Shown: positions 1-64,000, counted from the stretch's first letter. The stretch is 64,000 bases of DNA from Tricharina praecox (GCF_024521635.1 NW_026250446.1:62001-126000); one strand, 5' to 3'. Notes: a model not told the origin generated them from the letters alone. Numbers and translations are program-made.

Positions 1-3000
1 AATCGCGTTCAAGGCTTGCTTTTGCAGTCCCAAACCCGGTTGCACGTCCTAGGCTATCTTCCACTCATCCAGCATGCCCTGAATAAGGGGTATTGCTGTC
101 TGGTTGTCGACGCGTAAACGCAGGAGCTCGTCGGCGTGAGACGCTTCGCTGCAAGCGATGAAATTGCTGGTGGGGGGTGGGCAGCATTATTGGCGCGCGG
201 AAGCTCGAGGGCCGCGAGGAAGTACGACATGTCGCGTGGTGGTGACGGTGGTGACGGTGATGGTGATGGTGACGGTGGTGGTAGTGGGCGTGGTGGCGTC
301 GGTTGGTCTGATGGATGCGTGTTATCCAGTTGTCCCTATGTTGTCAGCCTCGCCAAATATGGCCGGATGTGCAGCTGTACGCCACATCCAGCCTCATGTC
401 TCACACGGCCACTCACAACTGCAATCCATGCGCATTTGTGTAACTAACCTCCTACACAGTGGAGTATGATTCCCGAAGGTTGAATGATGTGGTAGAAAGA
501 AGAAGGTAATCAATTCGGTACAGCAACAATAGGTATCGTGATTCGTGAGCAGCTCCGATCTGGCGGGCGTTACTTCGTCCTTGCCAATGTACATCATGGC
601 AGGTTACACATACTTCTCCATCCAGCTGTCACCGAGAGATGCCGGCGAGCTCAATACCGGTTCCCGATTACTCTCTGTCCAGGAGGCTCTCCCTCCCGCG
701 AGTCAACCCTCCACGTTCCCTCCCAGCTCCCTCCCCGCTCCCTCCCCACTCCCTCCCCGGCTAACTCAATCTGACAGAGAAAAAGACAGAAAGAAAGAAA
801 GAAGGAAAGACAGAATGAATTGATGAGGGCATTCTTCAGTCCATTTCTCGCCACGTCCAACCTCCTGTGAGCTCAACTAAGAAATCTGGTCCCTCGTCCC
901 TGCCACCCGTGGTTTCTATATCCTCTGCCGGCGGGTTGTTACATCATTTGGCGTGTATTTTCCTTGTCGTTATCTTCTTGGGCAAGCCATGCGGTATCGT
1001 CCACGAAAGCTTCCAGATATCATCGAGTGATCTCCAATGACCTGCACAAGTGACATGGTGATGAATATTGTTACGTAAGTGATGGCATCGAGTGAGATCA
1101 AATGACGTGGAGCCAGGCGGCTTGGGACATCAATGAGTTGATCTCTGTGGGCCGATCGGTCGACTGAAACCCACTTGTTGTCGCCAGATCCGCACAATGG
1201 TGAGGCATATCCGGTCAGATGTGGTAGAAAAGAAAGTGCTGGATTACGTTTTGACTCTGGCAAACTGGATGTATTCGGATGGTCTATCCGGAAAGCGGCG
1301 GCTATTGCTCGGGAGAAAACCGTGTGAAGCGTTGGCTCTAGAACTGGAATGTGAAAATACACATCCACATCTGATTCTTCGGCTAATCGCTTCCTGGCAT
1401 CCTCCACGGAGCTTTCCGTCAACAGAACACTCGTGGAATGGTCTATTCTTCCACCGCTTGCCTCCGTATCCGCCTTCGGATCCATCACTCTACTGTTTCC
1501 TTCTCTCCTAGATATTACTATTCACCACTCACGGCACTCACTATATCAGAGGCCTCGAAAGTCGGCAACTGCCTTCTCGTAACTAGATCCTTTGCCGAAG
1601 ATTAGCGGCCGACCGGGTGCCACGAATGATAGGATGTCTATTGAGGTGAGATCCGTAACGTGGTTAGATTTCTCGGCGGCAAACAATCGTGTGGAAAGCG
1701 GCGGAGTTGCATGCCATCCATCCATCGTTCGGTCCACCGCCAGATACATTAAGTATGGGATGTTCGGGCATATTTGTCTTAGAATTGGCGAGGCTTTATC
1801 ATTTGGCATCCTTCCTTCCCACAGCGCGATTTTGTCGAACGTCTTTCGCTGTCCAGATCATCCGTGTGAAGTTCGGGAACGACGCCCACAGTTGTCCGGT
1901 AACCTGTAAGCCGTCTACTTTCAAGTTTCCAACCCTCTGCCACCGCTGGTAAGCAGCTTTGTGACCATTCTAATTCACCGTTGCTTCAGCTCTGGCGGAG
2001 TTATCACCGTGTTCATCTAATGTAGGGATCGCGGCTGTCGTTGGGCGTTGTTGATGCAAGTAGATCGCAGGTTACGTTCACCGATCTAGCTAAAGCCTGC
2101 GGCGATACTCGGGTAGCGTAGGTATGCGTTTTGGCATGAGCTGAAAATCTTATGCTTCATCTCTTGCCCAACAAATTCGACACGCTAGTGCAACTCAAAT
2201 TCCAAGCCCGCAGTGCGCACCACCTATAAAAGCCACCCTTCCTGCCTCCGTCTCCCTTCCTCTTCCTCTCCACTCAACGGTCGCAACTTCCCCACTATTC
2301 GTGAAAGAACGACATCACGATGTTCCTCGGCGGCGACGAGTCGACGACGCGCTCGAAATCGTACCCAAAACCGAAGATCTTCCACTGCGATTCTGTGAAT
2401 ACAACGGCACAGTTACGAGAGTAGCGACGATAATCTAGGTACCCATTCATCGACAACAGCCCCCAAGACCGAAACGATCCGCCCGTATCTGGTAAGTCCT
2501 CAATTGGAAGTACAATATGGCTGCATCATGTTCCGGCTGCATCGACACGCTCCGTTGCTTCCTCACTCCCGTCATGAAGCAAGTACATCTGTCACTGCTT
2601 ACATCTCTAGTGCGCACCTGATGCTCGGCCTTGATGGTGTGATTCAATGATGCTCGGCTCTCAGAAGTCTGATGCAGTGTCCTACCGGGGCGCCATTGCG
2701 CACCGGAAGCTCGGCCCTGGTGGTCCAAGATGGGATGCGATAAATGGATGATGGCAAGGCCTTTGGCTAGTCATCCGTGGCCTTTGGCCACCACAGCAAG
2801 CAGGTGTCACTTTGGATGGGTTCTTTGCTTCGTGAACCGAAGCAAAATGCACAGCCTGCGAGTTCTACTCGCTATGGTCGCCAACCTTCCAAATATTCCA
2901 ACCCTTGCAGTAATCCTTCAAAGTTCAATCCTGCAAGAGTGAAGAGTCAAGACTCTTGCGTGGAGAGGTTTTTTACCTTCGGGCTTTCCTCTAAAAAAAA

Positions 3001-6000
3001 CATCGTCTTCCTGGCCGCTGTGCGAGGGGATGAGGTTTTTTTTACTTGGATTTGATGCTGTCTACGACGGCCGATAGGACCACTGTAGGTGGAAGTTCTA
3101 GCACCATGCAGGGCTGTCTAATTCTCCAACTGCCCGCGCGGACTTTGCCGCCTACTTAGATACCGCGAGATGGTGAATTGCGCATCGTCTTAGAATTAGG
3201 ATCTGATGAGCAAACAATGATGGAGGTGGGCTAATGTTCACCGAGACGACTTGCACGTGAAGGTGATGATTGGGCCCAGAGTTCTATGGGTTGTCGCTAT
3301 AAATTTTGAACCCGCGGCTACAGGCAGAGTTCACAGGTCCAGCGAATTTCCACGAGCGAACGAGCACACAAAACGGACACAGCCGAATTCGATTTTCCTC
3401 TACGCCACGTCATGCGGCCTAGCAGTAGATGAAGAAAAAAAAAGACCAGCAGCCTGTCAGACCTCCATCGTCGCCCACCCTCATTCCCACCGCTCATACG
3501 AGAAGTATACGGAAATTCGGGTCGAGATCATCACCCACCCATCCCGAAGGACCGGCAAAACAGGCTTCACTCTGGGGCAACGAGGATATCGATCATCTTC
3601 CAGGTTGGAGATTCTGTGGCTCTTGTAAAGAGTTCAGATGAGACGATTTACTATAGAAATGATCCCTGAGAATGTGTTAATTATTTTGGACAGATAGATC
3701 TCGACCCTGAAGGTGAAGGTAGGGGGTAACTCACTATGAAGTAAAATCGCATGAGGTTCGAAGAAAGGGGGGGAGGACCTCTTTTATATCAGTTGCAATG
3801 TGGCTCTGCGTCGGCGAAATTTTCTTCACTAACTACGCTTTCACGAATTGTCATTCGTGCACCGCTGCGAAACAGGTGTTGGTTATTCATCAGTCATCAC
3901 GCGTCTGCCTACCTATCCTAGACTAGAGTAGACTACCTAGTGCATACCAGCCTTGGCACTACCGCAGACTTCACCATATCCCCATCTTGTACTGAGTCCC
4001 TTTCTATTCTCTAATCAATCTACCTCAATACGATCATCTCGTGTACTCTCTCCATCGTATATCTTTAACAACAGGAGATCGACCTTAGTGAAGTAAGTAG
4101 TAGGACAGCAGGTGTACGTGTACAATACCTACTGGAGTACCGCTGGGCGCTGTGGCTGTATTATCTGAGCTGTAATCATCACATAACAGCCGGTAGAAAC
4201 GGAGATTTGGTGAACGCGAGAGTGTGACAACTTACACCATGACCTGATCTGAATAGTAAGTGAGTGTCAAACTTTGGTCGCCCGGAGATCTCGGCACGAG
4301 TTAAGGTTCGACGGTGGAAGAGTCTCGACGGCCTGGCGAACTCTGATGAGCGGCCAACTTTGTTGGGCGGCCAACCTTAGGTGGCCTCTCAGTCTTAAAC
4401 AGAGGTCTTCGCCGTGGACGATAGGTTCTTCTTTTCTGTGTCGAATAGAATATCATCATCTGTCTACGTATATATTTCAACAGTTAGAAATCGCCCGGTT
4501 ATCGCAGATAGACATTGGAAACACGGTTTGTTGGGTGTAAAATATCCAAGACGTGCGCACGTGCATCCGGGAAAGCCATGAAACCTGGCTGGTCCACGAC
4601 TAAGCGGTTCGTGTGGCTGAGGGATGGGGGAGACATTGCTGCCAACTCATGCATTTATTTGCCGCATCCCACCCTCAAGCACTGTCCCTACAAAGATCGC
4701 GCAAAACCGACGTCTGTCACTGTTTCATCGTAAAGACGCCTACCAGCACGCAACTCAAATCATCCCCTAGACCGTTCAACAGTACTCAAGCAGGCAGTCG
4801 AACGACATAGAAAATCGATATGCACTTTGACCAAGATTCCGTAGTCCTGCATGACCACCATTATGCCCCTGCACCGGTATGCCTCCCCCGGGAACATGAC
4901 CTGAATGGATCAAGACAGATGCATTGCCCGCCAAGCGACCGAGATCTTCCGCGGCAGGCGACCCACCAGTCGGTTTCAGGTTTTAGCCTTGCTGGCAATA
5001 AAAGCCTCATGACCCAGGCCTGCGAAGATTCATATGGCGCATGTGAGAGCAAACAAATCAATGGAAGCCAGGCAGAAGTTGTAACTTGTGTTGTACTCTC
5101 GGCGATAGTGTTTTCTGCGTGAGTTGCCACTGCGTCGTGCCGCTGGAAACGAAAAAACTTTTCTTCTCCCCATATGCCTCATTTCGTTTCGTTTGCTGTC
5201 AGATGTCTCATCTCCTTATAGTTTTTTTTCTTTGCGTTGCTGATGTGTAGATCATTCCGAACTTAGCATGACGGTCATATCCCGCTGCACGTTCGTTTGG
5301 ACGGATAGATTTTGCGGGGGCCCAGAGGGTGCATACAGTACACAACGCATACTGCAGGTCAGATCTCAATTTCCCCGGGGAACACGGCGGGTCATATGTA
5401 GGTCCCTATGTTCCAGGCTTCGACAGATATGCGGGGTAGCCGCCTTTGCCTGCCTGCCCTGCATATGAGCTGATCAGGGGGAGGTCCCCAGGGGGGCGAG
5501 AATGAACATCCGTAAACCTCCGGACGTTTTGTGATAAGGAAGTCAATTCCGCCGAGAGTCCGGGTGAATGTTGGTTGGCGTCCGGGAGTTGGAGACGTCT
5601 GCTTACCATACGTGCTCGGTAGTGATTGACGTGTTCGGCAGTGACGGACGTGCTCGGCGGCTAGCTATCTGTGCGTATTTCCTTTTTTCTGCAGCATTAC
5701 TGGTCACTCGACAGCTCGCTTCGAGCTTCTGTGATGTCCGGAAAGCCCAAATACGAAAAGCCGCGCGAACCACAATCCGGTTAACTATCGGTCGCGCTGT
5801 TAGCCGACACCAATCGGGTAGAGTGAATATCCACGTCGTCGGATAGATCTTAACTTTCATTCTTGTTGTCAACCCCAGTTGTGTTAAGTGGTGCTGCGTG
5901 CCTAGAAACCGGGATGCCTAATCTCACGATTGAGAGAACCAGTAGGCGACCTAAACTTTCTATAGCCAGCGGTTTGAGGTCGAGACGCGGCGATGTGTGA

Positions 6001-6950: not shown

Positions 6951-7884
6951 TCATAGTAGGTCCCTGCGAGCCCCCGAAGTTGACCGGCTGGTGCCCAGGG
7001 CTGTCGATTATTAGCTAGCAGCCAGAGCCCCGTTCCAGGTAGACATCGAGGAGGAAGACCTGAAGCAAATTATGGTGAACTTCCTTGCACTGGCTGGTAG
7101 ACATGTGGGCACAGCACGAATTCGATGGCGAAGATGAGAGCGGGGAACGCGACTATGAATGAAGCGGTGGGTATCGGTTGCTGGAGTGCGGATACATACC
7201 GAACAAATAGCTACACAACGGATTAGGACGCTGCAACGAAACGTGGCCGCGCAGCCCTGGGACAGGACAGGAGATTGGGAGTATGCGATTTGCGGTGATA
7301 TTGAGATGGTCGCGCTCCGTACGATATCTTATGTGAAAGGTTTGAAAGATGTGTTGCAAAATGGATCGCTGCCCGCTGCCGTCGGACATGTTGTGATTCA
7401 CAGGGAAGATGGTGTTCTCATCCCCGTGAGTAGAGTACAACAGCACAATGATCGGTTACACAGACCAGCCCCAGCCGCACGCCACGTGTGGCGTGCGGTG
7501 CCACAATAGGTGTCCTGCATTGGCGATGTTCTTGAGACGCAGCATTTGGGGATTAGGTTTAACTTCGGTCATTTTTTCTTCAGCCGGAAGCCTCCTCATT
7601 GATTGACTCGCACATAGCATGCTCTCCATAATACATGTAGGTTCCATCAAACTCTATTCCCCATGAACTCCTCTCCCGTTCCCTTCATCTGATGGGGGTG
7701 TCTTGCTTCACAAAGAAGACCTCGCCGGCAAAAGGCGTTATCATGAATGACGCACCGGCTACGTCTTCTAGTGTCTCATATTTCCTTGTTTAAAATTTCG
7801 TGATTGGACTCACGCGCGCAAACATCACCGTCACTCGACTACCTAACCACCAACGCGCGACGGGCAAAACGTAAACCACAAAAG

Positions 7885-13032: not shown

Positions 13033-15111
13033 TCAATCAAACCCAGTGAACTCCCCTACTTCCTTCCCACCCTCATTGCCCAGTGGAGCACCTCCATCGC
13101 CCTCATCCTCACTCTCGCTGGCCTCCGCCAGCTTCCGCCTCCGACTGCCTTCCAACGCGCCCCTCTTCCGATCCTCCATCTTCCTCTGGAACCCACTCTT
13201 CGTCGAAATCCTGTGTTTCGCATCCTTACCTTGGCGCACCTCGACACCATGCAGCTTGAGCTTTTTCTTGTCGTTCTTGCTCGTTTTTGGTAGCGAGTCG
13301 AGAAGCCACTTCTGTACGCCGCCTTCGCCGCCACCGGAACCCTTCGCCGACGCGCGGATGACGTTTGCGATTCCCTTGATGTACGGAATATCTTCCTTCG
13401 TGCAGTAGGTTATTGCCGACCCGCCCTCACTCCCGGCACGCCCGGTGCGGCCGACGCGGTGAATGTAGCTGGCGACGCTGGTTGGCAGATCGTAATTGAT
13501 GACCAACTTCACGCCGCGGAAATCCATACCGCGCGACAGGATATCGGTGGTGATCAGAATCCAGATCTCGCCGAGCCGGAAGCGAGTCATCGTCTCGGAC
13601 CGGACCGTGTCTGTGAGTTCGGAGTGGAGGACAGCGATGCGGCCGGGGGTGGGAAGATCATATTGGATTTCGTTGTAGAGTGCTTGTGCGCGCGGGATGG
13701 ATTGCATGAAGATGAGGAGCGGGGGTCGGAGACTGGTGGTGAAGAGGTTGCGCAGCGCGAGGAGTTTTCCCGCTTCCGTGGCGGCATAGACGATGGATTG
13801 GGAGATGGAGGGAAGAGAAGTATCTTTGATCCCAACGACGAGGCGGAGCACGGCAGGGGGGTTGGTAGGAGATTCGAGGAGTGTCTTCGTCATCAGGTTT
13901 TCAGTGGTGGACGGCATCGTGGCGGACCAAAGCGAGGTCCTCAGACAGCCATTTTTGGACCGGTCTCGGATTGTCTTCCAGATCGACATAGTCTGCTCGA
14001 GAAACAACTCATCGAGGAGTACGTCGGCCTCGTCGAGGACCAAGCCCATCAAGCCCGTCATCGAGCTCTCACCAGCCGACTCGATGGCATGCTTCAAGAC
14101 CAGCGGCGTGGAAACGACGATATCCGACTTCACACAAGGCGTCTTATCGTCCTCCGGCACCGTGTCCTCCGCTGAAACTGGTCGATGTCCCTTCTTGAAT
14201 TGCGAAACCTTGATGCCTGTGCCTTCGATCAACTTTTTCACCTCGTTGGCGATCTGCCCCACAAGCTCCTTCGTCGGTGCAAGAATCACAGCCTTGATCC
14301 CCTTCTTGCCTCCATCTTCTTTCCGCGCCCGCAGAAGTCTGTTGACGAGCGGCAACACGTACGCCAAAGTCTTTCCGCTTCCCGTCGGTGCGCACACGAG
14401 GAGATCCACCGGCGTCCCCTTGCTCACTCCCTCAACCTCCAAATCTGACTTCATCAGCACCGGCAGCGCACCCATCTGCACCTCCGTCGGGCTGGCGTAT
14501 CCCTGCGCCAGGACGTTCGCGTAGACCCGTCGGGATAGGTTGTAGTTGCGCAGCTCGGGGAACGCCATCATCGGTGGTATGAGAATGCCCGTCTTCTTCG
14601 CCTTCTTCTTTGCTTGCGCTTTCTCTTCCTCTTCCTCCTTCGCTTTCGACTTCTTCTTCTTTTTCTTGTCCCCGGCGTTCTCGTCTTCCTTTGGCTCATC
14701 CGTACTCGCGCTCAAGACGGTGAACTTCAGTTTGTTCGCCCGCAGCCGCCTCCACACCTCCTCCTCGGTCACGACCTCTTCGTTCACTTCCTTCTCCTCA
14801 TTCTCGTCCTCCTCCTCCACCTTTGCGTCGCTCTCTGCAGCTTCATCATCGCTGCCGTCGCGCTTCACCCTCTTCCCCGCCGACGCCGTAGCTTCAGCAC
14901 CCCGCTTTTGTCCCTGTCCGAAAAAGTCCGGCACCGCAACATCCGCGTCGACTGCAATCTTGCGTTTCTTCGCACCTTTCGCGCTTAGGACCACCGGTGT
15001 GGGTTTCGATGGAACGGGGTTCGACGGGACGGATTTAGATGCAGCGGGTTTCGATTGTGCGGGGCGCGAGAACGTCGCGGAGCGCGTCAGGAGTCGGAAG
15101 ACGTCGGTCAT
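13033..15111 (-). CDS. ROK1: ATP-dependent DEAD-box RNA helicase Rok1/DDX52 (ribosome biogenesis)
   Basis: Intronless ORF with Q motif (PTEVQ), APTGSGKT, PTKEL, DEAD, SAT, SRGMDF and HRVGRTGR. The N-terminus MTDVFRLLTRS and the LRPPLLIF/RAQALY segments are typical of Rok1. Confidence 0.9.
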   Translation of the reverse strand: MTDVFRLLTRSATFSRPAQSKPAASKSVPSNPVPSKPTPVVLSAKGAKKRKIAVDADVAVPDFFGQGQKRGAEATASAGKRVKRDGSDDEAAESDAKVEEEDENEEKEVNEEVVTEEEVWRRLRANKLKFTVLSASTDEPKEDENAGDKKKKKKSKAKEEEEEKAQAKKKAKKTGILIPPMMAFPELRNYNLSRRVYANVLAQGYASPTEVQMGALPVLMKSDLEVEGVSKGTPVDLLVCAPTGSGKTLAYVLPLVNRLLRARKEDGGKKGIKAVILAPTKELVGQIANEVKKLIEGTGIKVSQFKKGHRPVSAEDTVPEDDKTPCVKSDIVVSTPLVLKHAIESAGESSMTGLMGLVLDEADVLLDELFLEQTMSIWKTIRDRSKNGCLRTSLWSATMPSTTENLMTKTLLESPTNPPAVLRLVVGIKDTSLPSISQSIVYAATEAGKLLALRNLFTTSLRPPLLIFMQSIPRAQALYNEIQYDLPTPGRIAVLHSELTDTVRSETMTRFRLGEIWILITTDILSRGMDFRGVKLVINYDLPTSVASYIHRVGRTGRAGSEGGSAITYCTKEDIPYIKGIANVIRASAKGSGGGEGGVQKWLLDSLPKTSKNDKKKLKLHGVEVRQGKDAKHRISTKSGFQRKMEDRKRGALEGSRRRKLAEASESEDEGDGGAPLGNEGGKEVGEFTGFD

Positions 15112-15476
15112 TGTATTGATCAATCGCGGGCAGTGGTGGGGTGTAGTGGAATGCGATGGACGCGGTGAGGGAAGAGCCGCATGGAATTTTTCTACTGTCT
15201 CGCTTATCGAAAGGCGCTAACTAACTAATCATCAGGCACGTGAAAAGTTAACAACGCGACGCCACAGCGATGCCACAGCACAGTCCGTGTGCTACGACGG
15301 GAGTGCCACTCTAGTGATATGTTATGAATGTGAATAGTCGTACAGTACAAACGCTAAATTCCAACCGCCAGGTCTAAAAGATACAAAACAGCAAAGACGA
15401 CAATATACGCCCCAATTCGCTGCAAGATCTCAAGCTCCATCCGACAAAGCACACCATCTGACCATTTTTGCACCAC

Positions 15477-15677: not shown

Positions 15678-16060
15678 GTCCGTGTTGTTGTGAAGTGCTT
15701 GTGGTGGAAGGTATCTTGAGCGATTTCAGTAATACTCGGAGAGGTAGTTTGATAGGAGTTTGGTTGTGTGTGATCTGGAAGATGCGGTACCGTTGGAAAT
15801 GGAGACTAAGATCGAAGGTTGTGATGGTCTCTTAAGCTGCGGGCGAACCGATACATGAGATCGGGTATTGAAGGCGCCGCTGCAACTTCGACCTTTCAAA
15901 GTAGGCCATTGGGATCTCAGTGAACCGCGTTGAAGAGGGATCGTGTGCGGGGGCGATCTGTTATGATACTTAGAAGTGCACTCTGTTCATTGCATAAGTC
16001 AATATTCCGCACTGTACAGTCATTACTGCTAGCATAGGTATGCCACCCGCACCCCCAGCC

Positions 16061-17038
16061 TCAACAACCCCAGTCGCACTCCCGCCCACGCCTACCATTC
16101 GCCCTAAACGGTCTATGTCCTCGGCCATCCCCCCTGCTATGTCCTCGGCCGTCTCCCCTGACGGGCCAATGTCCTCTGCTATCCCCCCTGCTATGTCCTC
16201 GGCCGTCTCCTCTGGCCGGCCAATGTCCTCGGCCATCTCCCCTGACGGGCCACCGCCCTCCACGGGAACTACTCCTCCTTCCTGGCCCCGGTGAAAAGGC
16301 ATGAGGGCGCGGAGCACCCCTTGCGTGACGAGCAGCATTGTTGCGACCCACCATGTCGATCAACTGGCGGTTCTGAGTTTGGTAAATATACTGGACTGCC
16401 ATACTGTGGTGTTCGAAGCTGAAATGGTCTATCGAAGCGCCGCTACGGATGAGAGATTCCACGCCCCGTGAGTCGCCCCTTCTCATCGCATGGATCAAGG
16501 CGGGTTGACCTTGAACGTAAGCGTTGGGGTCGTAACCGTGGCCCCGAGGCATCGGCTGGGGAGGGTGTCTTGAACTAGCCATGACAAGTTGTGTGCTTCC
16601 AGTGCCGCCAGAGTTGTAACCCGAGCCGCCACTGTGACTACCGTAAGCGGAGATACTATATACGTTATTCCCGGTAGTATCTTACTAGTGACCAGTGTAG
16701 TAATCACCACCGTTGTAGCCCTCGTTGGCGTTCCCGTAGTAATCACCACCGTTGTAGCCCTCGTTGGCGTTCCCGTAGTAATCACCACCGTTGTAGCCCT
16801 CGCTGGCGTTCCCGTTGTCATTACCACCGTTGTAGTCCTCGTTGGCGTTCCCGTAGTAATCACCACCGTTGTAGCCCTCTGTGGCGTCCCCGTAGCCAGG
16901 ACCTCCATAGCGCTCGTCGCCGCCGAATCTTGGACTTTCGTAGCCCTCGTTGTCGCCGAACCTTGGACTATTGTAGCCCCCGTCGTCGCCGAGGCCAGTA
17001 TTTTCATCATCGTCACTGTTGGAGCCGTTGTAGGCCAT
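16061..17038 (-). CDS. Low-complexity protein (~315 aa): G/Y/N/D 13-aa repeats, one ankyrin-like repeat, RGDGRGH repeats; exons 17038-16686 and 16655-16061
   Basis: ORFs 16685-17038 and 16061-16582 join in frame after removing GTAAG..TATAG (16656-16685). 39-bp repeats encode EGYNGGDYYGNAN. DPNAYVQGQPALIHAMRRGDSRGVESLIRSGASID is ankyrin-like. Confidence 0.6.
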
Positions 17039-17857
17039 AGTCCGTGGAGTTTGTTGCTGTTACAGAGCGGGTGATGATATAGATTCGATCAACAAGGCTG
17101 GGTTCTTCGTCGGAAGCGTATTGGAAATCGACAAGGCGCCGGTACTAGGTGTAAATAAACACAATTTTGATCGTCATCTGTTGCTCGCAGGTGATGCTTT
17201 TGAGCATGGCGACCATGGCCGGTCTCACTTCTTATATACTTTCCTGTACACCCTCAGAACGCAGCCACAGCCATGACGGCTTAATATTTGTTGGATATTA
17301 TTGGCCGCATGTAGAATATCCGCACTGCGCAATGCGCACATGGTTTACCATCTCCCGCCACTGCGCACAACTAGGCCACCGTCGCGATAACATAAATAAC
17401 ATAATGCATAATACCAGGGTCTACTATATGCTAATTGTGGGTATCTACCCCGCGTATGTGGCGTTCTCTGGTGGTTGTGTGGGGTTCTGGGCTCGCGCGG
17501 CAGTGCTTCACCAGATAAAGCCGAGTCTCGACTCTCGTGCTACATACAGGCTGGGCGAACATGCGCGTACTCAGCCGCACCCCCTTCCGCGTGCCCACAA
17601 TTTCTGTGACACTCAGCGACAGATCATGAAGAGTTCAGTTCATTGGTGGCATCCGTAGCCCAATCGCTTACTTCGTCGATCGTCTGCATTCGCCTTGCAC
17701 AGCACGCTGCAGTGCATATCTAGCGAGTTTTCACCCGGAACGTGACAACTAAAGGATGACCGTCCATATCACGTGATGAAACTATGATCACTCGTCCCGA
17801 AAGGGCCTACACTAGCTTTTTGCAGAAACACGAGTGAGATATAATGAAACCTCCCGT

Positions 17858-17987: not shown

Positions 17988-18865
17988 GCTAGGATATGCA
18001 GCACATAACCTCACAACCCCCTCCGTACTGCGGCCCACGCCCACCATTCCCCCTAGCCGGCCTACGTCTTCGGCCATTTCCCCTCCCCTCCCTCTGTCGT
18101 CGGCCATTTCCCCTGACCCTACTGTTCCTCCTGACCGAACCCCGCGTTCTAACGGACCCTCTGTGTGCTGAACGGCCGCTTCCATCTCCTATGACCGGTA
18201 CCCGCCCTCCACCAGAACTACTGCTCGTTCCTGGTCGCGGTGGAAACGGATAAGTGCGCGGGGTAACCCTTGCCTGAGGAGCAAGGGTGTTCTAAGCCGG
18301 TGCGTTGCTACAGTAGTGGTTGTGGGTTTAGTTATAATAATTCACTACTATATTATAGTGTTCGAGGCTTAACAGGTCTATTGAAGTGCCGTTAAGTACG
18401 AGCGCTCCAACATCGCGTAATTCACCCCTTCGTATCGCATAGATCAAGGCGGGTTGACCCTGGACGAGAGCGTTGGGGTCAACGCCATAGTCCTGGGGCA
18501 TCGCCGGCGGAGGGTGTCGTGAGCGAGCCATGGCAAGTTGTGCGCTTCCATTACCGCCAAAATAAGCACCCGAGCCGCCACTGCAACCACCGTAAGCGGA
18601 AATGCTATAGACTGTTCCCGGTACTATCTTACCATTCACCATCGTAGTCATCATCATCGCAGTCATCGCTATCGGAGTCATCATCACCGTAGTCACCACT
18701 ATCGTAGTCATCACTGTCGTCGAAGTCGTCACCGTCGTATCGCTCGTCATCGCTGCCGAAGCCGGTGCCTTCGTAGCGCTCGTCGTTGCCGAAGCGAGTA
18801 CCTTCGTTGCCGTAACGCTGGGTAGACTGGTAGGCCGTACTGCCGTTCCTGCCGTTGTAGGCCAT
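17988..18865 (-). pseudogene. Paralog of the 16061-17038 gene with premature stops
   Basis: Same start (MAYNG), same intron position (18605-18632) and same ankyrin-like segment. CAA>TAA at 18328-18330 and a further TAG at ~18292, while homology continues downstream in frame. Confidence 0.7.
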
Positions 18866-19898
18866 AGTCGTCGATTGTGTTGCTGCCAGCTGGTACAGAG
18901 GAGGTGAGGATAGAGATTCGATCAACAAGGTTGGGTTCTTTGTCGGAAGTGTATTGGGAATTTGGGATCGACAGGGCGCGGGTACTAGGTGTAAATAAAC
19001 TCAATTCTGATTGACATATGTTGCTCACTGCCACCGGTGCAGCTTTTGAGCATGGTCGGTTTCACCTCTTTTGTACTTTCCCGTACAACCTCCGCACGCA
19101 GGGACGCCCAGAAGGCTTCATATGTGCTGGATATTATTTGCCGCATGTATTGTGCTCCTAGAATATGCACACTGCGCGCATCGTTTCCGATCTCCTGCCA
19201 CGCGCTGCGCACAGTCTTCACGTATGCAGGCCACTGTGGCGAGAATACAATCGGTATTACCAGAGTCCGCTATATGCTAATTGTGGACATCTATTGTAGG
19301 GTTACCGGATTACCGTAAAGTATGAGCCGTGACGGTAAAGTTCCCGCCTATGATCTATCAGGCATCGGGAGCCCGCATAGGTATGTGCGGTTCTCTGGTT
19401 GTGGGGGACTCTGGGCGTGTGCGGCTGTGCTGCACCGGACAAGGCTGAGTTTCTTGGCGTAGATATGGCTGCAGACTGTGCGAAAATCCGCGCATCCAGC
19501 CGCATCCCCTTCCACGAGCTCACACCTCCCGTGACATTTAGCTACAGATCATGAAGAGTGATGAAACAGTCATCCTGGAGTTCATTGGTGACATCCGGTG
19601 CGCAATCGCTTCCTTCGTCGATCGTCTGCATATCTACTCTACCTTGCACATTACGCTGCAATGCAAAGCAAGTTCTCGGCCGATACGTATTCAGTGACGT
19701 AACCCGGAACGTATCCACTGAAGTATGACTTAGATAATATGCAGAAGCACAGCGCAGCTGTTCACTAGCGAAAGCATGATCGGTTTATGCATCGACCGAC
19801 GATTCCACTTGTTCAGACATACCAATAGTGCTCGTCAGTGGTCACCCCCTCCGATCGCTCCAGGCGCAATGAAGGAACTACCACGCTAGGTAGGTATT

Positions 19899-20236: not shown

Positions 20237-21305
20237 CAGACCCTCCAACAATTCGAACTGGGAACAAATCGGGGTCGTTTCCAGACCAACCAACTGTTGG
20301 GGGGGTAGTGAACTGAACCAACTGGCAAACTGAACCAACTGCCGGGTTTTGAACCGAGAAAACTGCTTGGCCCAACAGTCCAATGAGACTTAAAATGTTT
20401 TCAGCTAAACCTGTCGCCACCACAAACCCACTGGCCAACCACGTACAACCCACCACCCACAGGCTACCATCATATGCAGGTCGCTGCCCCAGTTGACGAG
20501 CGCCAGGACTATGCTTCATTGCCTGTGGAGAAGAATGGTCGAAGCTGCACTGCCGCATTCGAATGGTGGCTGAAACCGCCACAGCAACTGAGGTTGAACG
20601 GCTGTTGTCTGACTGCAAGATGATTCTGACTGTTAAATGAGCGTTCAGAGATGTAGCCGTTGGATATTGCCGCTCTCGCCGGAGCACCACCGCCGGCAGA
20701 CGAGCAGCCGCCAGAGGCGATGCACGGGTGTGTATATATAGCGGCCTACCGCCGTGGCTGTAGAGAAGTCAAGTAATTGGGACGATATATTTCACACTGA
20801 CAGATCATCAGCATCCCTGGGTACCGAGAGTGTTGAAGTTCTGGAGAGTATCAAGAGGCTCAACCACCGTACTCTCACCATGGGCAGATAGCATTAGAGA
20901 GGGAAATAATTCAAAATCAGTACTGTACAAATCTTCTATCGCTATTTCCGTGCCCAATCCAACCTATTATACACACTAAACTCATTTTCTGTCGCTTTTG
21001 CCGTGACATTAGGACCCTATGTCGGCCTATTTCCCTCCCCTGACTGAACTGTCAGTTCCATTTTTATCGCTTTTTCCAGACCAATAGGACTCGATGTTGG
21101 CCAATTTCCCTCCCCTAACTAAACTGCCAGTTCATCTGCTGAACTGATAGTTCTGCCAGTTTTCCCGGGAACAACTGCTAGACCTACCTAAACCAACTGG
21201 GAACTGACAGCCTCTATTCCCAACTGAACCGGGAACAAAATCAACCCAAACTGAACTGTTTCAACCGGTATTCCCATTTCAACTGACTAACTGTTGGAGG
21301 GTCTG
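20237..21305. mobile_element. Non-autonomous hAT-type element (MITE), 1069 bp
   Basis: TIRs CAGACCCTCCAACA / TGTTGGAGGGTCTG; 8-bp TSD GTCACAGC / GTCACAGT; many subterminal AACTG repeats. Confidence 0.9.
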
Positions 21306-21730
21306 GTCACAGTGGATCTGAGCGAGAGACAGAGAGAGATAAAAACGTGGTTGTTTAGATACAGAAGAGAACGAACGGGCAACATTGAGAGTATATAAAG
21401 AGATACAGAGCATGAAAACCTAAGTTCCGTCATTTCCATCATCCAAGGTCATGCCATGATAATTCCCCTCGTGATATCAAGCGAGTTTGTCATGGAGTCG
21501 GCCATTGAGTCGATCACCCGCCGATCACACGTCCGCGTTGATGCTCGAGGCCATTTAACAGGATTCCTTCACCGACACTAAGTAGACCTACCAGACGTTA
21601 TCCACCCAAGTCTGCCATGGTCGGCAGATATCAGGTTAACCATCAGCAGCGAAGTTTCCCTTAGCCTCCGGCGGTGGGCCGAGCGGCTCGGGCGCCTAAT
21701 CTGTTTTTTGTTAGCCAGACGTATCCCGAC

Positions 21731-22635
21731 CTATGCATGGTCGGTCCGGATATATCCTGTCCTGACCAGATAACCCTCCCTCCCTCCCTCACACGAGTAC
21801 TCCACGCTGACTCGGCCCGTAGGCAAAACCCAAACAGCAAAAACCTCGTCCCTTCGCGCAGCGGCCAGGAAAACGATGTTTTTTTTAGGGGAAAACCCGT
21901 AGGTAAAAAACCTCACCACGTAACCTGTGGGCATGGAATATCAGGGGGTTCACTCACCTCTGCTCCCGACTCTGCGCTCGGCCCGTCCGCCTGCCATCAC
22001 GCGCCAGCGGTCCACCCCATACGTCCGCAGATCGTATCGACCGTGGCCCCGCCCTCCGCCACCAACACCAGTCTCTCCTTCGCCGCCGCGTACCGCTTCG
22101 TATCTGCTGCTTGCCAAAGCTTCTGAGGAAAGGTGCCAGCTTTCGTCTGCCGCTTTGCGAGCAGAGAACGGAGTGGACACGTCGAGTAGATGCCAAACCG
22201 GCGGGCGACTTCTACTGGCAGCTCGGAAAGGCTGGGCTGGCGGCCTTTTCTCACGAGCGGCGACTCGGCTTCCAATCTGACTGGCTGACTAATGCACACA
22301 TGGCCTAACACAATTACCAGCAACGCAAGTAGGTATGCGCCAGGGAAAGAAACTTACATCCGGCACGAGTATGCCGTCGGGCGTACTCTTCGCGACACCG
22401 CTGGCGGGTCAGCACGTTCTCGGCCGCGCTGAGCTACATAGTTATAGTACCTATCAGTCTACGTAATCATGGTAGTGGATTATGATATCAAGAATGAATT
22501 GCGCGGACTTACATCCTGAAACCGTATTGCGCCTCTCCTCACCTCCTTAATGGCCAGCACGATCGCTGCCTTTATCTCCTCGGTTGTTGCGGTGTAGGCT
22601 GCACCGATCAGGGCATAGTAGCACCTGATGGTCAT
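21731..22635 (-). pseudogene. J-domain-like (HPD-less) family, copy 1; exons 22635-22513, 22433-22358, 22304-21958, 21924-
   Basis: Spliced product MTIRCYYALIGAAYTATTEEIKAA..RFQDLSAAENVLTRQRCREEYA; introns GTAAGT..TAG (79 and 53 nt) and GTGAGT..CAG (33 nt). An extra segment at the end of exon 3 introduces TGA at 21997, so this copy is truncated or a pseudogene. Confidence 0.7.
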
Positions 22636-23523
22636 CGTGGATCTTTTGGGTAATCCGTAAAAAAAGTGTTGCGGAGAGCGAAGAAAGTTGTCGAGATTGT
22701 TGCTGTCGGTATTGTGGCAGGAACGGGGGAGATGGTGTGGGAAGGAAGGATGGATGGTTGTCGTCGAACGATTTATAAGAGTAGCAGAGCCTCCGCGAGT
22801 CCTCACCGTCAATAGCACCTGGGAGTTGAGGGTCGTTTGCGCAGGCTTGATTCACTCTGACACTCTCACCACGCCCGTCGGCTAGTACATCAGGTGAAGT
22901 TTGATGGGGTCGAACGCGGCCCGGAACCACCAAATGAAATCGATGACGACTATCCAGGCTTATGGCGGCTACTTCCCATCCTGCGGCAGGATGTTCGACA
23001 ATGAGTGGTTGGTAGGTGACGGAATTGCAGTCCCGACCTGAAGATTTTTGTTCTGGATATATCCCGACCTATCTCGATTCTCGACCATGCTCAAAATTGG
23101 TCGGGATTGGCCTATGTAGAACACTGGCTCAAACCCATATGGTCCCCTATATCTTCCTGGATGCCCATTGAGCCATGTGCAGAACTACATAGCTACAGAT
23201 ATCACTACAATACAGATAGACACCTCAGAAAAACGTCGGGGGTCTGCCAATCACTGTACAAAGTCGCGGCGACTTCACTCCTACTATTTCCATGGTTTCT
23301 GACAAAATCCTGAGAGTAAACTAAAGTAACATCGCAGCAATGAAACGTCGCCAATTGTACCCCCCAGTTTTGCCATTTTCCGAACCATTTCTTGGAGATT
23401 TCCAAACGTACACTGACAATCGATGGGAATAATATTAGCGAAACCAAGTTACATGCTATGAAGCCGGAGTGGAAATGGAACTCACCGACAATGAGCGACA
23501 TATGCCTTTGTCCTCCGTCAGGA

Positions 23524-49364: not shown

Positions 49365-50996
49365 TCGAGACGGTTGAAGAAGCATTCAAACACAACAAAA
49401 CATCCGAAAGGGGGTTCACCTTCGGGTTTCCTCTAGAACAAAAACATCGTTTACCTGGCTGCATGCGAGGCGGCGAGGTTTTTGTTTCGGGCTTTATAAG
49501 TAGAGTACACACTGTTCTTTTCGACCTAAGTGAGCCGTCTGGGTGTTTGAACTCCTGAGAGCTCTGAAACGGTACTCTACTTTCCTTACTCTATCCCGCA
49601 GCTTCCCTTCCCGAGAAAATGTGATCTCTAAACGCAGCTGTCCTCTACTTCAGGACCAACTCCACACGACGGATGGGTCCGGCACGAGTCCGACAGAATG
49701 GATATTGACGACCGGGTCTTCTTGGTGCCTAAAATCCTTGCTCCGGTGAAGCCCATGAGTTACATCACGAGAGAAGATCTCTTATTTAGATGTGTTTCAC
49801 CTACGACCACTCCAGTCACAACCTCGCGGGTACGCAGTCACATAGCTTGATCTTGGAAATCACCCGATGCCGGAAAATGAATGGACAGAACCTCTATTCT
49901 AGATAAATGTAGAAGCAACTTGTGACAGTTATGTACAGCTGAGTACCGGATACTTGTCGTAGGCAGATAGCCAGATCAACGATAATTATGGCCTTACCAG
50001 CCGTGGTTTCAGGTAGCGATAATATGGAACATGCGTCCCCGTAGAAGAAAAAACTTCCCATTTCCCCCTACATACTGGAGGCTATGTACAAGGTGGAAGA
50101 CTTAAGTCATGGCCACCTTCATCGCAACTGCACGGGCGTCTACCTACCTAGTTTCAATATGCAATATCTACCGGCTCATCACCCCCGCTTCCCCACCGCT
50201 GTCTAACCCAGCTTTTATCAGGCGGCTCGATGAGACTTTCCCTGCCCCCGCCGTGGCCTGTCCCAAACTGTTCCGGAGTTCTCAAGCAGCGTATCACTGT
50301 GCATCACTCGCCAGCCGAGTGATACCATGTGTTCACGTTTTGGTGGTGGATATGCAGGATGATATTCGACCGAAAGATGTCTTAGATGATGTCTAGCTAT
50401 ATGGACAGGATCAGACCCTTTTATATGTGAGAGGATAAGAGATGCTAATCATGCAGAAACAAGAGAGCGAACTCGTGACAAGCAATGAAATAAAAGAGTG
50501 ATAGCCATGAAGGATCAATGAAACAAACGAGTGGTATTAGTGAAGGATCAATGAAACCAACATATGCAAATCAACACCAGGTGTATCGACGGCAGCGAGA
50601 AGTCTCAATTATGTAACGTGGTGATATTGTTATGATCTAGATAGGTCGCATGCAAGCAATGATTAAACAAAAAAAAAAGTCTCAATAACGACTCTCAACG
50701 GCGATAGGGGTGCCCCCCCCGCCACCACTGTTGGCGAGTGTATTGATCCAGAAGAAGGGCCGACGTCGTTGCCGACCCAGGCGCGGATGGTCTTCGAGCC
50801 AGAGACAACGACGACAGCCTCGCTGGGCTCGACGTCACCCATCTTGACGTCAGGAGCAACCTCGTTGCCCCGACTGCAGCTTCATCGGCTCCGCAGTCCA
50901 GTTTCCCGACGTCGGCCTCTACAGCGGCTTCCCGAGGTCACAGTCCATCTGCCCCCCACCGGCAGGGATCTGCGCCTCGGTCTTAGCATCCCGGAC

Positions 50997-59233: not shown

Positions 59234-61101
59234 ACCTACCCTTGTAAAAAAGGGGTTTTTTTTAACAGTGGAGCGACTGTTGTGCCATTATGTTTTGTCA
59301 AACCCGTAGGAAAAGTAAATACCACATCGTGATAGTTGAGAATTTCACACATGCCAAATTATTGACCTACAGAAGCAACTGAAAACATTGTACAGTCCGT
59401 GTTGGATTTCCAGACGTGTTGCAAGTTTTCAACGGAGGGAGTGGATATACAGTTGACAGGCTTTTCCCGTGAAAATTGGAGGCAGTAGTACAAGTAATCC
59501 CGATTATAGAGAGTTAAATGGCCGACAATTCGACACATTTAAAGAATTACTTCGAGTTTTTTTTCTCAATATGTTGCAAATCTCTCCTATGTAGTTGAAA
59601 TAAAGCGTTTGAGTGTATTAAAACGTTGCAGCATCGTTTTCGTGGCATTTTTGAACCGTTTTTGAACTGTTGAAATATGAGAGTAGGACTGCAACGTGGG
59701 AAACTGGGCTCGGGTTTTCTCGCTTATGCAGCATTTTTCACCTTGGTCTTGACGCATTGAGCACCTAAATGGATTTCTATTTGATGTACTAGTACTACCT
59801 ACGGGGCCAGCGGCCAGCATCCAGCATCCAGCATCCACGGCGGCCAGAGAAGCATTACTGCAAGGTGAGCTATATCTGCAGTGGGCACGATGGGTTATCC
59901 GCAGAGAGGGGAGGAGCTGCGGGGAGAGTAGCATTTGCGTGGAGAATAGCAGTTGTGGGGACAGTAGCTATTAGCGAGAGAAGCTATCAGGGAAGATTGC
60001 GGCGGGAGGGGTAATAGCAGATGCGGTGGGAGGGGGTGATAGCAATTGCGGTGGGAGGGGGAATAGCAGTTGCGGGGGGGAGGAGGAGATGTGAGGGGAG
60101 AAGGGGTTGTGGGAGAAGAAGAAGAAGAAAAAGAAGAAGAGGCGGATGGCTAAGAGAGCATACGACCCCGCCATGCCCGCCATGTTCGCCAACGTTGGTG
60201 CCCTCTGGAGTACTAACCACATCCGTCTTCTCCTACCGACAGGAGTCCTCCTTCACTTCCTCCTCTTGCCGACGCCTCCTCCCACAACTCCTGAGTCATT
60301 GCACGAATTGACTGAGTCATTCCTACAGTCATTTAGCGGATTGACTTAGTCATCCCTGTTCGATGACTTCAGTCATTTCACGAACTGACTAAGTCATTCC
60401 TAGAGTCATTTACTGGATTGGCTCAGTCATTCCTGTTTGATGACTAGTGTCATTCCAAGACCTGATTGAGTCATTACCAGAGTTATCTACCGGATTGACT
60501 CAATCATTACTATAGTCATCTCGCGAATTGGCTCAGTTATTCCTGTTCGATGACTAGAGTCACTTCACGGACTGACTACGTCATTACTAGAGTTATTTAC
60601 CAGATTGACTCTGTCATTCCTAGAGTCATCTCGCGGATTGACTCAGTCATTCCTGTTATTACTCCCTCTTGTGGCTGCTCGCTCATCGCTCCCCACACCG
60701 GAAAACAGTAGAAAAATGCCAAGACAACGTTTAAATTGTTGAAACGTGACGACAAGGGTAGAAAAATGCCAAGAAAGCGCTTATGTGAGCACCAACGATA
60801 TATCATCTCGAACTTGTGTTTTTATATTTCCACCAGTTCCTGTTTACTTAAGCGTTAGATCAACGTGTGATAAATTCACACATTGTCTGGCTTTTTGCCG
60901 AGTTTACAATTTAAAATGGGTGTACTGTCCATCATCATTTTATTTCCGCATCGTTTTACGTGGCTCACGTTATTCTAGATGCAATAGTTGCGGAACAGTT
61001 GCGCAATACTGCGGGGCCGCTTGTGAAATCTAATGATCGCGCAACCATTTTCCAACCCACCGCTCACGTTTAAAAAACCCCCTTTTTTTATATGGGTAGG
61101 T
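59234..61101. mobile_element. Non-autonomous TIR element, copy 2 (~1.87 kb), inserted in J-like gene copy 2
   Basis: TIRs ACCTACCCTTGTAAAAAAGGGGTTTT / AAAAAACCCCCTTTTTTTATATGGGTAGGT; the flanks rejoin to match the uninterrupted paralog at 63545-63570. Confidence 0.9.
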
Positions 61102-61276
61102 ACATACGAATGCATACCCGTCAATTATTAGCGACACATAACAGGAAAGTCGCCTGAGCAAAGCAGAAAACCTCGCCCCCTCGTGCAGCGGCCAGGGAGA
61201 CGATGTTTCTTTAGAGAAAAACCCGTAGGTAAAAAATCTCGCCACGTAACCTGCGGCCATGGAAATGGAAGGGAGT

Positions 61277-61927
61277 TCACTCATCTCTGCTCTTCGCGCC
61301 GACGGTCCACCCCATACGTCCGCAGATCGTATCGACCGTGGCCCCTCCCTCCGCCACCAACACCAGTCTCTCCTTCGCCGCCGCGCACCTCTTCGTATCA
61401 GCCGCTTCCCAGAGCGGCCGAGAAAAGGTGCCAGCTTTCCTCTGCCGCTTAGCGAGGAGAGATCGAAGCGGACACGTCTTGTAGACGCCGACCCGTCGGG
61501 TGACGTCTACTGGCTGCTTGGAGCGGCTGGGATGGCTGCCTATTCTCGCGAGTGGGGACTCGGCTTCCAATCCGGCGGGCTGCCTGATGCACACTTGGCC
61601 TAACACAATCATCAGCGAGGAAAGTGGGTATGCGCAAGGGAAAGAAACTTACATCCGCGAGCATGCCGTCGGTCGTATTCTTCGCGACACCGCTGGCTGG
61701 TCAGCACGTTCTCAGCCGCGCTGAGCTACATGGTTATAGTACCTATCAGTCTGCGTGATCATGGTGGCGGAATATGATATCAAGGATGAATTGCGCGGAC
61801 TTACATCGTGATACCGGATCGCGCCTCTCCTCACCTCCTTAATGGCCAGCCTGATCGCTGCCTTTATCTTCTCGATTGTCGCGGTGTGGGCTGCACCGAT
61901 CAGGGCATAGTAGCACCTGATGGTCAT
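61277..61927 (-). CDS. J-domain-like (HPD-less) family, copy 2; exons 61927-61805, 61725-61653, 61599-61277 (172 aa; ancestral 3' exon disrupted)
   Basis: Spliced product MTIRCYYALIGAAHTATIEKIKAAIRLAIKEVRRGAIRYHDLSAAENVLTSQRCREEYDRRHARGCQVC..; introns of 79 and 53 nt as in copy 1; the third donor is mutated to ATGAGT. Confidence 0.7.
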
Positions 61928-63399: not shown

Positions 63400-64000
63400 C
63401 GAGCCCATCTCCTTCGTCCAGCGTTTCTCATATCTTGTAGAATAGGAAATACTATTTTAGGAAATGCGAGAGATACATACACATCTTCAGGCTACCTGAG
63501 AGGCATTTGAAACCGGGCATAATTTCTGCTCCCGCAGCACTGGGCGAGTGACTACCCAACATGCGAATGCTAATCCATCGGTTGTTGACGACGCACAGCA
63601 GCAAAGCAGCCTTCGCACGGCAAAAAAACTCGTCCCCTCGCGCAGCGGTCAGGAAGACGACGTTTTTTCAGAGGAAAACCCGTAGGTAAAAAACCTCACC
63701 ACGTAACCTGTGGCCATGGAATGTCAGGGGGAGTTCACTCACCTCTGCTCGTTGCACCGACGGTCCACCCCATACGTCCGCAGATCGTATTGAGCGTGGC
63801 CCCGCCCTCCGCCACCAACACCAGCCTCTCCTTCGCCGCCGCACGCCTCTTGATATCTACAGCATCCCAAAGCTGCTGAGGAAAGGTGCTAACTTTCCTC
63901 TGCCGCTTTGCGAGCAAAGCAAGAAGCGGACATGTCTCGTAGACGCCAATCCGGCGGGCGACGTCTACTGGCCGCTCGGAGAGGCGGGGCTGACGGCCTC
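63400..64000 (-). pseudogene. J-domain-like family, copy 3 (3' part; 5' part lies outside the window)
   Basis: Exon 3 (AAAKERLVLVAEGGAT..ICGRMGW), 35-nt intron 63708-63742, exon 4 GYVVRFFTYGFS with an apparent frameshift in an A-run. Confidence 0.7.

Follow-up and report, generated by a model that had tools for sequence, protein, structure and literature searches.

A pseudo-J protein gene family of Tricharina praecox and the ENE-like RNA element that it shares with free-standing units

Introduction

J-domain proteins (JDPs) require the HPD motif to stimulate Hsp70, and pseudo-JDPs such as Pam16 bind a functional J-domain, according to the available portion of a recent review in which the function of pseudo-J proteins is called unresolved (PMC13254874). 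A basic patch on helix II is described as drawing J-domains to Hsp70 and driving the encounter in the available portion of a second source (PMC7289447).

A different class of known systems, the ENEs, consists of RNAs with a U-rich internal loop between short helices, flanked by G-C pairs. As described in the available portions of three papers, ENEs bind poly(A) or an encoded A-tract, slow decay, and have been predicted in fungal transposon RNAs (PMC7583470, PMC13541005, PMC12501189). In fungi, triple-helix 3'-end protection is predicted mainly for such transposon RNAs. The ENE of PAN has five U-A-U triples, as given in the available part of its description (PMC7583470).

Here, a 64,000-nucleotide stretch of the Tricharina praecox genome (GCF_024521635.1 NW_026250446.1:62001-126000; "the window") was analyzed together with the whole 38-Mb assembly. 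A first-pass annotation, made from the sequence of the window alone, had reported a multicopy spliced gene family encoding a J-like protein from which the HPD loop has been deleted. The features identified are listed in Table 1.

Results and discussion

Copies and structure of the J-like gene

Self-comparison confirmed that the window harbors three related copies. Copy 1 (21836-22949) and copy 2 (61162-62240) share 85% identity over 1123 nt, while copy 3, at 63.6-64 kb, is 80-82% alike to the other two. The similarity of copies 1 and 2 reaches approximately 310 nt upstream of the ATG, in agreement with the shared upstream DNA of about 300 bp that had been noted. Two placements needed correction: the peptide quoted for the copy at 21.7-22.95 kb belongs to copy 2, and within the interval assigned to copy 2 (59.1-62.2 kb) only 61277-61927 is gene, 59234-61101 being an unrelated TIR element. 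A DNA search of the whole assembly gave 29 matches. Approximately ten of these are near-complete genes, distributed over six contigs (five on C44, with others on C24, C27, C30, C31, and C50).

Nine copies were aligned, with the most decayed copy (on C24) and the fragments omitted. The gene consists of three exons encoding 168-187 aa, with the two introns at identical places in all nine copies. GT donors occur at 16 of the 18 intron sites (the others being one GC and one TT) and YAG acceptors at all 18. In copies 1 and 2, introns 1 and 2 both have GTAAGT donors and TAG acceptors and a single frame is open as far as the ICGRMGW motif, so that the same introns and frame are indeed kept. The spliced models are identical to annotated hypothetical T. 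praecox proteins, themselves gene predictions: copy 1 to P0004, of 168 aa, and copy 2 to P0002, of 172 aa.

Of the nine, four (copy 1, copy 2, L005, and L006) are cleanly intact and one (L008) is doubtful, with a GTG start and a weak donor. The other four are broken: copy 3 by a stop at codon 5, L003 and L007 by frameshifts, and L010 by loss of a donor. Stop codons lie at 21997-21999 in copy 1 and at 61277-61279 in copy 2. A TGA five codons past the Met of MGW, or its equivalent, is found in copy 1, L007, and the copies on C24 and C27, and in the remaining copies and fragments read, a nearby stop is reached via small deletions. For the C-terminal part of the protein, structural comparison returned HTH-like rows, all weak and below the bar, and no usable feature match was found in the Atlas. 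A DUF3489 match (E about 0.1) was not accepted, and no longer relatives of exon 3 were seen among 529 candidates, which is weak evidence.

Table 1 Positions of the features identified in the window
Feature	Position	Strand	Evidence
Orphan RNA element, without J-like gene or TATA box	2936..3044	+	Covariance model
hAT-type MITE, inner part, broken off at copy 1 3' side; left terminal repeat not found	21642..21767	+	
Copy 1 RNA element, 3' region	21835..21952	-	Covariance model 102.7 bits; covariation
Copy 1 hairpin 2: A-tract pairing with closing U-tract; arms conserved, loop variable	21839..21883	-	
Copy 1 hairpin 1: UNCG loop on 3-bp upper stem, above U-rich internal loop and lower stem of G-C pairs	21887..21914	-	ENE-like
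Copy 1 exon 3 through stop: low-confidence linker, basic KRQRK-type cluster, two helices to ICGRMGW	21997..22304	-	
Copy 1 intron 2, 53 nt	22305..22357	-	
Copy 1 exon 2: J-like helices III-IV	22358..22433	-	
Copy 1 intron 1, 79 nt, GTAAGT...TAG, phase 0, start of helix III	22434..22512	-	Donor GT in 8/9 copies, GC in 1
Copy 1 exon 1: ATG at 22635, J-like helices I-II, HPD-less loop	22513..22635	-	Matches P0004
Copy 1 TATA box, then pyrimidine tract	22771..22779	-	Sequence
hAT-type MITE, right part with terminal repeat	23030..23126	+	
Diverged orphan RNA element beside sister TIR element	49379..49487	+	Covariance model
Nonautonomous TIR element, 1.87 kb, 37-nt TIRs, inserted in copy 2 3' flank	59234..61101	.	
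Copy 2 RNA element	61162..61283	-	Covariance model 95.8 bits
Copy 2 gene, 172 aa, intact; exons 61805-61927, 61653-61725, 61277-61599	61277..61927	-	
Copy 3 RNA element	63619..63735	-	Covariance model 97.6 bits
Copy 3, exon 3 end; gene runs past window; stop at codon 5	63735..64000	-	

A J-like domain without HPD or basic helix II

Residues 4-61 of the J-like protein align with J-domains. Against a profile of 15 J-domains taken from this genome, the nine N-termini scored 6.1-19.9 bits, and eight of the nine spliced copies scored higher than the best of 2700 shuffles (8.0 bits). Against PDB sequences, the family profile had DNAJA1 as its best match (E=4.6e-4), with 23 of 27 rows being J-domain proteins by name, and hhalign gave 96.7% with an HPD-bearing J-protein. 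The family shares with canonical J-domain proteins the Tyr-Tyr-x-Leu of helix I and the Val-Leu...Arg...Asp pattern and spacing of helices III-IV, and differs from them in lacking HPD and a basic helix II and in falling under the Pfam cut-off. From these sequence comparisons, the homology of the domain is judged to be real despite the missing HPD.

The Pfam, AlphaFold, and Foldseek check that had been suggested gave a divided result. The better AlphaFold model contains four helices (3-14, 18-33, 39-50, and 52-61; pLDDT 59-70) and is unreliable past residue 61; a first model was poor (pLDDT 39). Pfam DnaJ (PF00226) was matched over positions 2-63 in three of five proteins (E 0.007-0.04, 14-17 bits), below the cut-off of 27.8, and J-domains among the top Foldseek rows had E values above 2, which are not significant. 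A wide structure search with the J-like model returned generic bundles only, with no significant J match, and the Atlas row for the J-like fold had a TM of 0.63.

HPD is absent from all nine copies and the loop is shorter by approximately 7-10 residues, which bears out the earlier description of the N-terminus. The 14-residue helix II has a net charge of -5 to +2 in the family, being negative in eight of the nine copies, compared with +2 to +6 in all 14 HPD-bearing J-domains of the same genome. By this comparison, neither of the two features with which a J fold contacts Hsp70, HPD and a basic helix II, is left in the sequence. This speaks against an Hsp70 decoy, and the J-decoy proposed in the first-pass annotation is poorly supported.

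The protein can be placed among the type IV pseudo-JDPs as these are defined in the available part of the review, by a recognizable J-domain from which HPD has been lost (PMC13254874). Like Pam16, DnaJB13, and the Plasmodium type IV JDPs described there (PMC13254874), it has a recognizable N-terminal J-domain, with four predicted helices, from which HPD is missing; unlike them, its loop is deleted rather than substituted, its helix II is acidic, and its gene is multicopy, lineage-restricted, and weakly constrained. Searches revealed no Pam16 or class B domains in the family: for the Pam16 family there was no Pfam row at E<=10 for five proteins and no Pam16 chain among the 27 PDB rows. Elsewhere in the genome, another J-domain without HPD (L053, G000:C17:77301-77456) scores 31 bits, above the Pfam cut-off. 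In the profile search described next, two unrelated proteins (P0013 and P0014), each with two tandem HPD-less J-like domains, appeared at the edge.

Range and selection

From an HMM search of 1.84 billion representatives, 10 proteins were recovered, seven of which belong to the family. Five of the seven are named T. praecox proteins and two are Logan proteins corresponding to L005 and L007 read unspliced, while the other three of the 10 are ordinary J-like proteins with E>1e-5. No relative was thus seen outside this genome. An HPD-less J-like family that is lineage-restricted and copied at the DNA level, as had been claimed, is supported.

Selection among the copies is mild: codon analysis of the nine gave an omega of 0.617 and omega=1 was rejected (2dlnL 22.4, p=2e-6), with only the stretch before the frameshift taken for L003 and L007. 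Median pairwise omega of the J-like domain was 0.66. Indels come in triplets in 21 of 28 cases in exons versus 25 of 89 in noncoding DNA, although these events are not independent. Yet exons, with a DNA identity of 0.72-0.74, are no better conserved than introns (0.75-0.76). An omega below 1 and triplet indels combined with exon identity not above that of introns fit birth and death under weak constraint, showing a family in which copies are gained and lost under weak purifying selection. Much of it may be decaying, given the equal exon and intron identity and the proportion of intact copies (4/9). RIP was excluded as the main source of change, as transitions account for 1980 of 4617 pairwise differences among copies.

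Movement of the copies

Homology between copies mostly stops 300-450 nt upstream of the ATG and approximately 100 nt past the RNA element described below, extending further in a few pairs. Flanks differ between copies and the family has no shared transposon ends. Copy 1 (21768-23029) is located inside a MITE, and the sequences that flank copy 1 on either side are contiguous in an empty copy of the MITE (L149). A 9-nt word (8/9 alike) is present at both copy 1 junctions, and there is a short match between copy 1 upstream DNA and the MITE; together with the empty copy, this is as expected of a template switch.

An 8-bp target duplication is a mark of hAT elements. The MITE family has 15-nt terminal repeats, with 8-bp target duplications that are perfect in six of 12 cases and 7-of-8 in a further four. 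Its members (window 23030-23126 and 44885-45706; L149-L160) range from 155 to 822 nt, with at least 34 genome matches, and no transposase was identified for them. The setting of copy 1 resembles hAT-type MITEs and Pack-type capture, but copy 1 is the only one of approximately ten copies to do so and the left end is lost. None of the other J-like copies adjoins the MITE. Pack-type transposon cargo was rejected for the family because flanks differ and the MITE terminal repeat stands beside copy 1 only, so that the earlier suggestion of transposon cargo holds for this one copy and fails for the rest.

The 3' flank of copy 1 matches an orphan RNA element elsewhere on its contig, which points to recombination between copies, and the flanks of copies 2 and 3 match that of copy L003, also on this contig, in what the sequence indicates is a larger segmental duplication. 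Helitron and Helentron 3' borders have CTRR after a hairpin. Such a border was rejected, as hairpin 2 of the RNA element ends in a T-run and homology continues within subfamilies; PF14214 had no match in the genome, with the control genomes equally without a match.

The surroundings are rich in other repeats. The TIR element beside copy 2 and the sequence at 47744-49362 are two nonautonomous members of one TIR family, with 37-nt TIRs beginning CTACC and internal tandem arrays; their identity is 98% along a 486-nt end and 70-86% in the remainder. Immediately adjacent to copy 1 on its 3' side (window 20300-21580), at least two more dispersed repeat families form a nest, with 107 genome matches. 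Window 56435-59016 is 88% alike to L116 7393-9998 over 2.6 kb, and 62740-63517 is 76% alike to 6233-7020 over 0.8 kb. At L126 4900-5120 and in L125, a different upstream sequence, which contains an intron, precedes the last J-like codons and the RNA element; in this region, C27 and C59 have 99.9% identity along 10 kb. A C39 protein match (E 0.03) appeared unrelated on reading.

A structured RNA element behind the stop codon

The first-pass annotation had read the words RFFTYGFS and KKNIVFLAA as a further domain fused to the J-like protein. Both lie past the stop codon, and an open frame from the ATG to RFFTYGFS with canonical splice sites exists in none of the nine aligned copies. Indels of 1-2 nt are present in the segment, and its copies are divided among the three frames (20/13/10). 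The "RFFTYGFS..KKNIVFLAA domain" is a noncoding structured RNA element, not protein, and this part of the annotation has to be withdrawn. In J-like copies the element begins directly behind the stop codon. It is approximately 90-110 nt in length, comprising hairpin 1, an A-tract, and hairpin 2, and is the best-conserved part of the unit, at 87% in eight copies (84% when the truncated L010 is included) versus 72-76% for exons and introns.

When 24 copies were aligned with plain MAFFT, 92.5% of cells were paired and seven of 24 pairs had changed on both sides. The observed pairing was reached by none of 500 shuffles, a control that ignores relatedness, and slid controls gave 49-63%. Across 58 distinct rows, including five weak antisense matches, 96.7% were paired in an alignment fitted to the model. 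A UNCG tetraloop (UUCG, UACG, or UGCG) is present in 37 of 43 parsed copies, 33 read directly and four parser-shifted by one base, with two of 45 copies unparsed; other loops occur in four of 10 J-linked copies versus two of the 33 others, so that decay of the loop is more frequent where the element is linked to a J-like gene. The sense strand is favored by the UNCG loops and G-U pairs rather than by folding energy, which is not better on that strand (mean z of -1.5 for the sense and -1.9 for the antisense strand, the sense value being the lower in 17 of 45 cases). Pairing of the A-tract with the closing U-tract is an alternative, but those pairs hardly vary and so are uninformative.

No Rfam match to the element was found by E-value at 10 loci (four unrelated rows only) or by gathering score at 12 loci and the window. 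A search of nine loci found no tRNA, and nothing in viral contigs matched hairpin 1. Inspection by eye for consensus features led us to drop HDV-like, hammerhead, twister, U1/U5, and H/ACA readings. Box H/ACA snoRNAs and fungal intergenic structured RNAs, as covered in the available part of PMC8216456, have the same two hairpins, A-rich hinge, and own-promoter intergenic units, but the element is without an ACA tail or Rfam match and numbers dozens per genome, whereas those are mostly single copy (PMC8216456). A box H/ACA snoRNA was rejected on the absence of an ACA box, the U-run and unrelated flanks that follow hairpin 2, and the lack of an Rfam match. No description of such an RNA family was found in the literature searched, the scope of which stopped short of supplements and of the 2016 transposon-ENE survey, which could list the motif, and none was found in the available portions of two fungal RNA-motif surveys.

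Free-standing units and a second genome

The pattern of hairpin 2 occurs at 37 places, compared with 0 for a reversed control. When several searches were pooled by hand, the element was located at 45 or more sites across 16 contigs; 12 of these sites belong with the J-like gene or with fragments of it, and most copies are free-standing. Of the 27 non-J copies examined, a TATA box stands within 260 nt of 15, and 21 carry between one and three CA-rich leader repeats; a TATA box at this distance was also found for eight of nine metagenome copies. Neither feature was seen in any of 11 J-linked copies. The free-standing units form subfamilies with their own flanks, often as tandem or divergent pairs.

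One scan of metagenome contigs identified seven further loci of the same layout, in which a TATA box and a pyrimidine tract accompany 23-nt repeats and the core; four of these units lie within 2.4 kb as two divergent pairs. In L139 (2392-4734) and L142 (2302-4741), each divergent pair shares approximately 300 nt with two TATA boxes, and LINE-like remnants are near. In the metagenome copies, both sides of the upper stem are exchanged, and 4-5 U stand on the 3' side of the loop. Their flanks match the genome studied here only in short repeats and LINE-like remnants, at 67-78%, and for this reason the loci were taken to represent another, related genome. No J-like gene was seen in the seven loci (tblastn best E 0.47). 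Three soil metatranscriptomes compared with a stretch holding two free-standing units yielded two short pieces, both outside the elements, and give no evidence either way. For the J-like gene itself, no RNA data set was listed as containing it.

Nine of 10 J-linked elements, together with two orphans, form one clade (97/94). The promoters of the J-like genes do not match those of the free-standing units, copy 1 being without homology to them. The single clade and the unmatched promoters lead us to propose that the module was captured once by the gene and that the composite then spread; on this sequence evidence, the ancestor of the J family gained the 3' module of a multicopy small-RNA gene behind its stop codon. 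More tentatively, and with somewhat less than even odds, the free-standing units may constitute an undescribed class of multicopy small RNA genes, with at least 30 per genome. Each would be TATA-driven, often as one of a divergent pair, and yield an RNA of approximately 150-200 nt, with one to three CA-rich leader repeats serving as a protein-binding array and a self-protecting triple-helix 3' module. Such a module could be captured by protein-coding genes, the charge-reversed pseudo-J family being the example, linking their messages to the same regulator or decay route. By analogy, the putative small RNAs may be likened to a miniature cellular PAN RNA.

Comparison with ENEs and proposed function

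In the sequence-derived fold, hairpin 1 has the shape of an ENE. It shares with the ENEs of KSHV PAN, MALAT1, and plant and fungal transposons, as far as the available text describes these, a U-rich internal loop between short stems, G-C pairs adjoining the loop, and a position just behind the stop codon (PMC7583470, PMC13541005, PMC12501189); an A-tract follows hairpin 1, as is described for MALAT1. On the same partial descriptions, the element differs from known ENEs in its lopsided loop (5-6 U versus 2-5 U), its 3-bp UNCG-capped upper stem, and its second conserved hairpin. Further differences are that most of its copies lie not in transposase or retroelement RNAs but in short, free-standing, TATA-driven units that have leader repeats, and that its J-like host keeps introns. 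The 5' side of the loop has 5-6 U in 38 of 43 copies; on the 3' side there are 2-3 U in 32 copies and 4-5 U in the other 11. Because 2-3 U on the 3' side, as in these 32 copies, are fewer than the five triples of the PAN ENE, the element is a candidate rather than an established canonical ENE. The A-tract may fill the U-rich loop, or it may base-pair with the closing U-run, the third strand then coming from the six U's of the loop.

The explanation that we favor, at a probability of about 0.5, joins a weakly constrained pseudo-J family with an ENE-like 3' module captured once from a small-RNA gene family. In this explanation, the J-like gene would multiply in repeat-rich regions as a 1.2-1.4 kb DNA unit made up of promoter, exons, introns, and 3' element, spread by duplication, by recombination between copies, and by occasional capture into transposon remnants. 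The J fold would most likely have been put to new use as a helical scaffold for binding, within a small protein that is probably nuclear and is neither a stimulator nor a competitor of Hsp70. The 3' module is predicted, with support from covariation, to fold as an ENE-like hairpin followed by a second hairpin. Its U-rich loop most likely binds the A-tract or the poly(A) tail as a U-A-U triple helix, which would protect the 3' end of both the free-standing RNAs and the pseudo-J mRNA.

In a different account, the J-like copies would mostly be decaying duplicates without a present role, and the element would form the end of a small selfish DNA element of the Helentron/HINE or MITE kind, or serve as its signal, with hairpins acting at the DNA level and upstream sequence dragged along. 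The equal identity of exons and introns, the four broken copies and the doubtful one among nine, the nest of TIR elements and MITEs around the genes, and the ending of the element in a T-run, together with its occurrence behind unrelated sequence, all agree with such an origin. It is nevertheless unlikely: omega is below 1 and indels come in triplets, there is no common 5' or 3' border across subfamilies (flanks match within groups only), the TATA box, pyrimidine tract, and leader repeats stand at a steady distance in two genomes, and G-U pairs and UNCG loops favor RNA on one strand. Still less likely is a short third intron whose splicing would make the element coding, with RFFTYGF completing a helix-turn-helix. 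Some copies do have a GTGAGT...CAG pair spaced 33-35 nt, and residues 131-167 are like the first two helices of transposase-type HTH models, below the bar. However, donor and acceptor are both canonical in only four of nine copies, each with a stop or frameshift upstream, and the 1-2 nt indels, the presence of all three frames across copies, and the occurrence of the element without any ORF all speak against coding; we consider this reading hardly credible.

The function of the protein admits two further alternatives. A dominant-negative J decoy, binding Hsp70 or, as Pam16 does, a partner J-protein, would damp the chaperone cycle. A recognizable J-domain without HPD is what such a decoy would have, and the binding of a functional J-domain by Pam16-type pseudo-JDPs, as reported in the available part of the review, is compatible with an acidic helix II (PMC13254874). 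Hsp70 binding, however, needs the basic patch according to the available text of PMC7289447, and helix II is net negative in eight of nine copies. The domain also evolves rapidly, with a median pairwise omega of 0.66, which is unlike what a surface matched to a conserved chaperone would do, and no match to the Pam16 family was found; a decoy is therefore improbable. The remaining alternative, a selfish poison-antidote or meiotic-drive system in which the RNA element sets message lifetime and the free RNAs act as sponges or suppressors, is quite improbable. wtf and Spok are poison-antidote or drive systems, likened here in behavior and not by homology. Many dispersed, fast-changing, partly chimeric copies among transposons in one lineage, and the same RNA module in an mRNA and in free RNAs, would suit drive. 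Against it, Pfam revealed no toxin, kinase, or membrane domain, and the element is present in a second genome without a J-like gene having been seen in the seven loci (tblastn best E 0.47).

Under the favored joint explanation, the pseudo-J protein family is new and of modest interest, a young, expanding family minus both Hsp70 contacts that provides a clean case of J fold re-use, and the RNA module with its free-standing gene family is more surprising. The larger point is a covarying, UNCG-capped, ENE-like element at at least 45 places in a 38-Mb genome, with no Rfam match and with its promoter layout kept in a second genome. If transcribed, it would represent a new fungal small-RNA family and a very short natural test object for triple-helix 3'-end protection.

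Other features of the window

Among 30 long ORFs of the window, the only clear Pfam matches were a DEAD/DEAH helicase ORF at 13033-15216 (-) and an IF-2B-family ORF at 11765-12502 (+); the rest look lineage-specific. Positions 16059-17716 and 18009-19665, in which the tested ORFs had no Pfam match, form a tandem duplication of approximately 1.6 kb at 72%. A fungal U3 snoRNA gene (Rfam RF01846, 132 bits) lies at 3452-3679 (-), approximately 400 nt from an orphan RNA element.
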